A DNA stretch of 64,000 bases from Macrostomum lignano (Eukaryota), in assembly GCA_002269645.1 (NCBI GenBank), contig NIVC01000513.1, forward strand, positions 434,001 to 498,000, written 5' to 3'. Under the pieces are notes generated by a model. The model did not search any database and was not told the origin of the DNA. It saw only the letters and a program-made list of their open reading frames with translations. Shown here in pieces: positions 38,799 through 39,670 of this stretch. Position 1 is the first letter of the stretch. The number at the start of each line of letters is the position of its first letter. The position numbers and the translations under genes are program-made.

Positions 38799-39670
38799 AT
38801 GAATAGCGGCAACGGCAGCAGCAGCAGTGTAGAAGAGCCGTCGCAGTTAGTTGCGGTGGCTGTAGCACTGCGTTGCGGCCGATCTCCCTCAATCCTGTGG
38901 TGCGGGGTTGGGGGCGGTCGAGTAGGCCGGAACCCGCCACTTCCCTCCACCGCCCGACCAGTTTTAACTCTGGCGTGTAAGTATGACAGCAACAGTAGTA
39001 GCGGCAGCAGCAGCAGCAGCACCAACAGCAGCATCAGTGGCGACAGCAGCAGCAGCAGCATTGACGACGACTTTCAAGGTTGGTGCGGTGGTGGCTACTG
39101 CGGCAATGAATGTTTCCAGCCCGGTAATGGCTGTGGACTGCTGGGGGCCAGCCCCTGTGAACATGCCGCAGTCGCCACCGCTGCCGCCGCGACTATTGAA
39201 GGCAGCAGCAGCAGTAGCAGTCTGAATCAGCAACCGCGGCAACTGAAGAAGAAGACGAGCCGCTGCCGATTGGGCATCAATTTAGCCCCTCGGATGGGGC
39301 TGCAGCAGCACAGTACTGACGCTGCTGCTAGTGAAAAGGCTGCCGCTGCTGACGACGATGGCGAGGCCACATACCAAGAGTTTTTGCGGCGTTGGCGCCG
39401 CGAGCCCGACTTGGACATGGTAAATAATTGCATTTTATCTGAAAACTTTTCATTTTGCAACTAATTGCTGATTCAAAATTTCAATGCATTATAGCGGAAA
39501 ACTTTTCCCACCATTCCCTTTTCTAGCTAGCTGACTATTGTTTTGGTAGCCCCACTGAAGAGCGTGCGTATTACACGGCGGTGAAGGAGCGGCGGGTGTA
39601 TGAGGCTGATTTACATTATGAAACAGCCGCAGAATTGGACAGCCTGTTTCCTGGCTCGGGGCTTTGTTGA
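38799..39670 (+). CDS. Two-exon unknown protein (254 aa; exons 38799-39419 and 39527-39670) with Ser/Ala tracts and a Cys-rich motif
   Basis: CCAAT/TATA promoter and a phase-0 GT-AG intron at 39420-39526. The frame is open after splicing, and both the exon-2 peptide and the Cys motif are conserved in other copies. Confidence 0.7.

Follow-up and report, generated by a model that had tools for sequence, protein, structure and literature searches.

The gene at positions 38799 to 39670 of the window (the whole stretch of 64,000 nucleotides of Macrostomum lignano DNA that was analyzed) is real: it is protein-coding, has two exons, and is under purifying selection. No known family was recognized for it, and it is called the orphan gene here. 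On one arm of a short, Maverick-like element it stands in a fixed order, after a PC4-like gene and before a dUTPase gene. Beyond expression and constraint, we infer the function of its product throughout from sequence. The chances seem to us about even that it is a spliced accessory gene whose product, a mostly disordered nuclear adaptor, supports replication of the element's DNA by binding host or element proteins.

Gene structure and coding constraint

Exon 1 (38799..39419, plus strand) starts with the ATG at 38799 and runs for 207 codons up to the donor GTAAAT at 39420. It encodes, in order, the GGGRVGR block, a Ser-rich linker, the Cys block, an Ala/Ser linker, the KKK..RLGINLAPRMGL block, and the YQEFLRRW helix. 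The intron (39420..39526, plus strand) is a 107-bp, phase 0, GT..AG intron with no frame bias in its evolution, and the acceptor TTTTCTAG closes it at 39526. Exon 2 (39527..39670, plus strand) has 47 codons followed by TGA, with one predicted 32-residue helix. The earlier note had proposed a two-exon gene with a junction at 39419/39527 and a spliced product of 254 aa (207 + 47), and the coordinates, donor, acceptor, and stop were all found in the sequence as claimed. On the same strand a CCAAT box (38699-38703) and a TATA box (38724-38730), kept in the aligned full-length copies, lie 5' of the gene, and an AATAAA polyadenylation-type signal (39787..39792) lies 3' of it; all three were recognized in the sequence.

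The PC4-like gene upstream (37209..37996, plus strand) is frameshifted in the window copy. The dUTPase gene downstream (39922..40380, plus strand) has an open frame and matches PF00692 with E 4.7e-31. The right end of the element is a terminal inverted repeat at 40626..40978, with the ACTACGTA end motif on the minus strand. Fused to it at 40979..43154 (plus strand) is a copy of the 3' part of a protein-primed polymerase gene, with GT..AG introns at 41510-41581 and 41870-41952 (plus strand) and an inverted repeat following. The window copy of the element is a rearranged right arm joined to a polymerase fragment. A short frame starting MASKRSAA, 5' of the polymerase gene and in the same direction, was seen at 36644-36830 (minus strand) and at 6086-6460 of the C1263 element; it may be the first exon of the polymerase gene. 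In C2286 a LINE is fused to this frame.

Three further copies of the orphan gene, all on the plus strand, were found in the window. The second is an exon 1 copy at 17184-17443 and 22974-23213 that ends after the Cys block and has LINE sequence between its halves. It is contained in a sister element of 7,396 bp with inverted ends (16124..23519), flanked by the target duplication GCCGAA at 16118-16123 and 23520-23525. This element interrupts exon 2 of the third copy, whose exon 1 end, intron, and exon 2 start lie behind a polymerase fragment at 15878..16123 and whose remaining exon 2 sequence lies at 23526-23564. The fourth copy (6255..6350) is decayed to the promoter and the GGGRVGR block. The W(Y/C)G(V/I)GGGRVGR motif stands at 6279, 17295, and 38898, in three copies as reported before, but the places previously listed as 17300 and 23055 belong to one copy split by a LINE. 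The second exon 2 reported before is also present, but it is itself split by the sister element (16019-16123 and 23520-23564). The recurrence of the Cys motif at 23055-23156 was exact in its count of 10 synonymous and 5 nonsynonymous codon differences.

Other features of the window were recorded in passing. LINE sequences at 17444-22973, 23838-25920, and 34293-35201, in or beside element copies, contain RNase H, a PWWP/PHD-type first frame, endonuclease, and reverse transcriptase. A RING-finger exon lies at 493-975 and a piggyBac-type transposase fragment at 2851-3650; positions 45100-64000 are densely packed with tandem repeats and satellites, whose long frames are spurious.

Searches of the same 764-Mb genome gave at least 15 DNA matches and at least 18 protein matches to the Cys region, and at least 23 matches to exon 2. 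Twenty-one copies were taken; for each block, rows with less than 75% coverage or less than 60% identity were left out and identical rows were merged. The distinct rows kept numbered 9 for the GGGRVGR block, 16 for the Cys block, 13 for the end of exon 1, and 15 for exon 2; the copies are mosaic, and the rows include near-identical pairs from different contigs (C2132/C2539, C89/C2647, C1176/C1753). These pairs and C471/C513 share near-identical rearranged element copies, which suggests duplicated or allelic assembly regions.

In the same order of blocks, the codon model gave omega values of 0.50, 0.25, 0.30, and 0.19, with P of 0.018, 2.8e-6, 1.0e-5, and 1e-16 against omega fixed at 1; exon 2 was the most constrained block. 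Simple counting in the stated frame gave dN/dS of 0.31–0.44 over the blocks, vs. 0.9–2.0 in the other two plus frames, 0.93–1.6 in the intron, and about 1 in the promoter. A synonymous excess was also present in the minus frame with the same third positions, but that frame contains stops. Private and shared changes did not differ significantly in constraint (Fisher P 0.15). For neighboring genes in the same loci, omega was 0.34 (PC4-like), 0.37 (dUTPase), and 0.10 (polymerase). The earlier note had suggested that CpG decay lay behind some of the synonymous changes, and 3 of its 10 do touch CpG; CpG decay as the sole source of the codon bias was rejected, since the blocks remained at 0.41–0.50 (P 0.011–0.024) with CpG sites left out, when the intron stood at 1.02. 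The ratio across genomic copies, which had been named as the check on the gene, was 0.19–0.50 in the stated frame and not near 1. With the splice-site support given below, this purifying selection upholds the view that the element carries a real protein-coding gene here. Both exon frames were uninterrupted in only 4 of the 21 copies, the window copy included, and the other 17 were broken, partial, or split. Promoter, splice sites, and stop were preserved across copies 70–90% alike.

Eight sequencing runs were compared, all of them as contigs; seven were guessed to be RNA and none is recorded as RNA. In one contig from run X3 the end of exon 1 continues directly at 39527, with the first of two tandem AGs as acceptor. 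The proposed junction was thereby seen in one of the seven RNA-guess runs, in a frameshifted form: the contig lacks one base immediately before the donor. It likely came from a frameshifted copy, because the missing base matches two copies on C157. The other AG lies four bases further downstream and was discarded as a coding acceptor, given an omega of 2.0 in its frame and the use of the first AG by the contig. Unspliced contigs cross the edges of the orphan intron in X1, X2, X5, X6, and X7 (the RNA nature of X1, X5, X6, and X7 being a guess), and the absence of the joint from the contigs of X1, X5, X6, X7, X2, and X8 is no evidence against splicing. Two polymerase introns were spliced out in X2 and X3, one in X8, and none in X14. 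Therefore X2, X3, and X8 hold spliced RNA, and the element uses host-type introns. Contigs identical to exon 1 of the window were present in X1 and X2; RNA-guess contigs also extended over non-coding flanks.

The Cys block and the predicted protein

The Cys block occupies 39072..39158 on the plus strand. Its Cys codons at 39084, 39099, and 39132 were invariant in all 16 rows, as were W, G, G, Y, G, N, and L. Cys was encoded at 39111 in 13 of the 16 rows, at 39114 in 14, and at 39156 in 8. The pair CC at 39111/39114 is typical of the family; Phe at 39114 occurs in the window alone, and the X2, X3, and X14 contigs have Cys there. The spacing C-x4-C-x3-C-x6-C-x7-C, offered earlier as the motif of the gene, is accordingly peculiar to the window copy. 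The five Cys of that motif were retained in the copy at 23055, as had been said, but the fifth (39156) is the one found in half of the rows, and three copies (C1263 and two on C157) have an in-frame, Ser-rich sequence in place of the whole block. Judged from the alignment, the family core is WC-x4-C-x3-CC-x5-C, which appears to be an optional module because of these three substitutions and the irregular fifth Cys.

Three invariant Cys plus one of the adjacent pair would make a candidate zinc Cys4 module, and metal binding by the block is plausible; in the model the block is unstructured. No paired CxxC was found, the Cys spacings being x4, x3-4, and x5. The companion idea of a disulfide-rich protein was not supported: the product has a basic KKKK stretch instead of a hydrophobic signal stretch. 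Its best 19-residue hydropathy was 1.34 and its best 11-residue value 2.1 at residue 17, with no signal-like start as judged by hydropathy alone. WCGxG, which we took to be a possible group III phospholipase motif, was dropped as such when no conserved HD pair was found in the exon 2 rows.

The earlier note had recognized no family, and Pfam, PHROGs, PDB, and the large protein collections were likewise blank. Whole exon 1 and residues 88-128 had no relative among 5.8 billion proteins, and the exon 2 profile had none among longer proteins or 1.84 billion representatives. Neither exon had a relative in the ESM Atlas, for which both queries were below the recognition level. There was no match in Pfam or PHROGs, none among PDB sequences (best E 0.28), and none to the gene in viral contigs and metagenome contigs. 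These blanks weigh little, since the collections are poor in spliced genes of animal elements, the queries were short or of low complexity, and the exons were searched separately.

Exon 1, of which 48% is S, A, G, Q, or N, was modeled as disordered except for one helix at residues 188-200, with pLDDT 40 on a 7-row alignment; the low value may reflect the shallow alignment. Exon 2 was modeled as one long helix (residues 9-40, pLDDT 86.6), and a fold search with this helix found nothing under E 1. The exons were folded one by one, so a domain spanning the intron lies outside both models. Neither the exon-wise models nor Pfam, PDB, or the fold search gave an enzyme fold or catalytic motif, and a pattern search of both window exons found no LxCxE. 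The CR1-like pattern [DEN][LIMV]xx[LM][FY], sought after a paper had defined it, occurred in 10 of 15 exon 2 rows and in 2–3% of shuffles; it was absent from the other 5 rows and never had the following Asp.

The carrier element

Every orphan copy found sits among pieces of the short element, and no host copy outside the element was found. The complete copy at C1263:48014-58456 begins with an inverted repeat, followed on one strand by the protein-primed polymerase gene with its introns; on the other strand come the PC4-like gene, the orphan gene, and dUTPase, and then the inverted repeat. At 18 of 22 exon 2 places, dUTPase directly follows exon 2. Complete polymerase-bearing copies measure 8.8–10.4 kb. 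Their protein-primed family B polymerase matches PF03175 with E 1e-27 to 1e-15, and their terminal inverted repeats are about 350–400 bp long in family 1 and about 1,350 bp in family 2. The ends carry the motifs ACTACGTA and ACTACTA, and among the end pairs found by end patterns in the fetched stretches 17 of 19 had 6-bp target duplications. Also present in the polymerase are the stretch FHGCFYHGC, which may resemble VSR, and two motifs that as a pair may resemble OTU. VSR inserts are described in a preprint (bioRxiv 2023.08.22.554363).

The carrier had been called a Maverick. It is Maverick-like, but it is not a standard Maverick, as no integrase, capsid, or ATPase was detected in it. Two integrases from full Mavericks of the same genome had no match within the short elements of 99 loci and the window, and the open reading frame maps of complete copies leave no room for an integrase, although a very distant, intron-split gene could escape. 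Capsid and ATPase queries, whose labels rest on position and motifs rather than Pfam, had no tblastn match inside the short elements; PF04665 had no match anywhere in the genome and is uninformative here. For a maturation protease, the maps of complete copies show no unassigned long frame. No second segment with the same ends and an integrase or capsid was seen; the fetched end-pattern matches were polymerase elements, palindromic derivatives, and fragments.

The arm that carries the orphan gene varies among related elements. Sister elements of the C1300 type have the same polymerase arm and an apparently non-coding other arm. A second family, with a polymerase 62% alike and dozens of near-identical matches, carries the PC4-like gene only. 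Both the polymerase-only and the polymerase-plus-PC4 type are complete, and they outnumber the orphan-bearing type. From these comparisons the orphan gene is dispensable for spread, because types lacking it are complete and have spread at least as well.

Several element forms were noted on the way. The second family is young (C24:795199-803954, C173, C811, C1412, and about 40 more matches); its members are 8.8–9.1 kb long with inverted repeats of about 1,350 bp, the PC4-like gene, and no integrase seen, and each of the four complete sites checked had a different 6-bp duplication. Palindromic elements, consisting of an arm and its mirror image, were seen at C1197:117159-124408, C261:123483-132051, C2863:112554-120316, C1580:19348-25750, and C2132:148104-157572, with 6-bp duplications at most of them. 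Their form suggests that protein-primed replication produced them by copying back and that they can still integrate. At C2539:52499-55387 a THAP/P-element transposase with a 963-codon frame lies in the middle of a palindrome that has the orphan gene on both arms. Miniatures of 247 bp at C1368:57955-58201 and C4195:41473-41719 consist of the two ends only; the duplication was checked and present at C1368. The alternative right arm of the C1300 element (5800-9100) lacks a clear codon bias, whatever the frame, and contains a repeated unit of roughly 250 bp.

Full Mavericks, with AGTAGT ends, an integrase, and an intronless polymerase, are abundant in the same genome. The short-element polymerase is 22% alike (E 0.001) to the best of their polymerases. 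One full Maverick has its integrase gene after the PC4-like gene, at the place that the orphan gene has in the short element. In one such family some copies lack the polymerase: Maverick copies of about 10–12 kb at C460:444022-454250 and C1131:155350-164955 and on C494 and C1184 have AGTAGT ends and PC4-like, ATPase, capsid, and integrase genes. Their polymerase is absent or a remnant, and their end sequence is shared with a polymerase-bearing copy on C114.

Proposed role and comparison with known systems

Both kinds of neighbor are useful to a self-replicating DNA: proteins with the PC4 fold bind single-stranded DNA, and the nucleotide pool is kept clean by dUTPases. In the adaptor reading to which we give even chances, host RNA polymerase II would transcribe the orphan gene from the CCAAT and TATA boxes to the AATAAA signal, and the KKKK stretch would carry the protein to the nucleus. 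There the short conserved blocks between Ser/Ala/Gln linkers could serve as binding motifs, with the Cys block as an optional module that probably binds a metal, likely zinc, and the C-terminal helices as the core binding surface. The protein's mode of action would resemble that of adenovirus E1A or adintovirus Oncoid, without membership in either group. Integrase would be supplied in trans, likely by the full Mavericks of the same genome. A broader scheme is doubtful: a divided Maverick system in which intron-bearing, polymerase-only replicons borrow integrase and capsids beside polymerase-less elements with integrase, capsid, and ATPase, and the orphan gene encodes an E1A-style protein for host control, whose metal-binding module can be swapped and which drives host cells into DNA synthesis.

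It is unlikely that the protein acts instead on the DNA directly, as an end or packaging adaptor that attaches to the ends or the terminal protein of the element, so that a capsid-less element can borrow the integrase or capsids of a helper Maverick. Such a protein would suit an element that has no integrase or capsid genes yet has 6-bp duplications at 17 of 19 end pairs; an integrase gene takes the orphan's place in one full Maverick, and the basic and Gly/Arg blocks are possible binders of nucleic acid. However, element types lacking the gene integrated with the same duplications, and the protein was not seen to resemble any helper protein. Quite unlikely is a role as selfish cargo, such as a toxin or antidote from which carriers benefit. 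The gene does have an intron and does lie on an exchangeable arm, as does cargo that one report ascribes to nematode Mavericks (bioRxiv 2022.07.12.499685), but we found neither an enzyme fold or catalytic motif nor a host copy outside the element, and its position between two replication-support genes is fixed.

That the gene was once useful and is now dead, with an old codon bias and present transcripts that are noise, is distinctly improbable. Most copies (17 of 21) are broken, partial, or split, the sole spliced contig is of the frameshifted form, and RNA-guess contigs also lie over non-coding flanks; against this, constraint equals that of the dUTPase and PC4-like neighbors, copies 70–90% alike keep the promoter, splice sites, and stop, and contigs of X1 and X2 are identical to exon 1 of the window. 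A secreted, disulfide-knotted peptide precursor, like a knottin or conotoxin, is very improbable: one subgroup has six Cys in the order C-C-CC-C-C, which we take to be the knottin order, but 8 of the 16 rows lack the sixth Cys, three copies have no such block, the best 19-residue hydropathy of 1.34 comes with no signal-like start, and there is no Pfam or PDB match.

If the orphan gene is only an optional accessory, it adds one to the orphan genes of mobile elements. It is also a selected, spliced protein with no relative found, and its partners would show what the element needs from the animal cell. Fresh 6-bp duplications, host-type introns, and exchangeable arms mark a family that has spread and in which neither integrase nor capsid was detected, and helper dependence among Mavericks thereby becomes testable from sequence within one genome. 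No account of such a short element was found in the literature covered, a partial set with most subscription papers and Repbase outside it.

Among viral accessory proteins, adenovirus E1A is spliced and disordered and has an optional zinc region. The orphan protein resembles E1A and adintovirus Oncoid/Adintoc in being a small, short-motif accessory protein with a Cys cluster, and may share the CR1-like pattern of 10 of 15 rows, but differs in having no LxCxE, no paired CxxC, and no sequence match found. The orphan protein could conceivably be identical with an Adintoc protein, Adintoc being known here by description and not by sequence. The CR1-like pattern, (DEN)(LIMV)xx(LM)(FY), was defined for adintovirus accessory proteins in one paper (PMC8502044).

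Linear plasmids and transpovirons have inverted ends and are short, capsid-less linear replicons, with protein-primed polymerase or helper dependence. The short element is also short and capsid-less and has a protein-primed polymerase; unlike them, it integrates in nuclear DNA with 6-bp duplications and has host-type promoters and introns. Nematode Mavericks carry intron-bearing cargo, namely wasp/wosp proteases and krma kinases, according to the same report (bioRxiv 2022.07.12.499685). The orphan gene, too, is an intron-bearing gene in the variable arm of a Maverick-like element. The enzymes of that cargo are folded, and the elements around them are complete, integrase and capsid included, whereas the orphan protein is mostly disordered and neither gene was detected in its carrier.

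The closest comparison is with Mavericks/Polintons themselves. Polymerase plus integrase is what defines Polintons. According to two papers (PMC8097293, PMC8502044), animal elements are 12.7–24.6 kb long, intact vertebrate elements are intronless, and the ends of vertebrate elements are (AGT)2, (AG)3, or (AC)3A. The short element shares the PF03175 polymerase, terminal inverted repeats, 6-bp duplications, and accessory genes beside the core, and the PC4-like gene is common to it and the full Mavericks of the same genome. It differs in size (8.8–10.4 vs. 12.7–24.6 kb), in having no detected integrase, capsid, or ATPase, in a polymerase split by spliceosomal introns where intact vertebrate elements are intronless, and in ends of ACTACGTA or ACTACTA rather than (AGT)2, (AG)3, or (AC)3A. 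The element is Maverick-like in replication and insertion, and stands outside the Mavericks on account of its undetected integrase and capsid/ATPase genes, its introns, size, and end motif.
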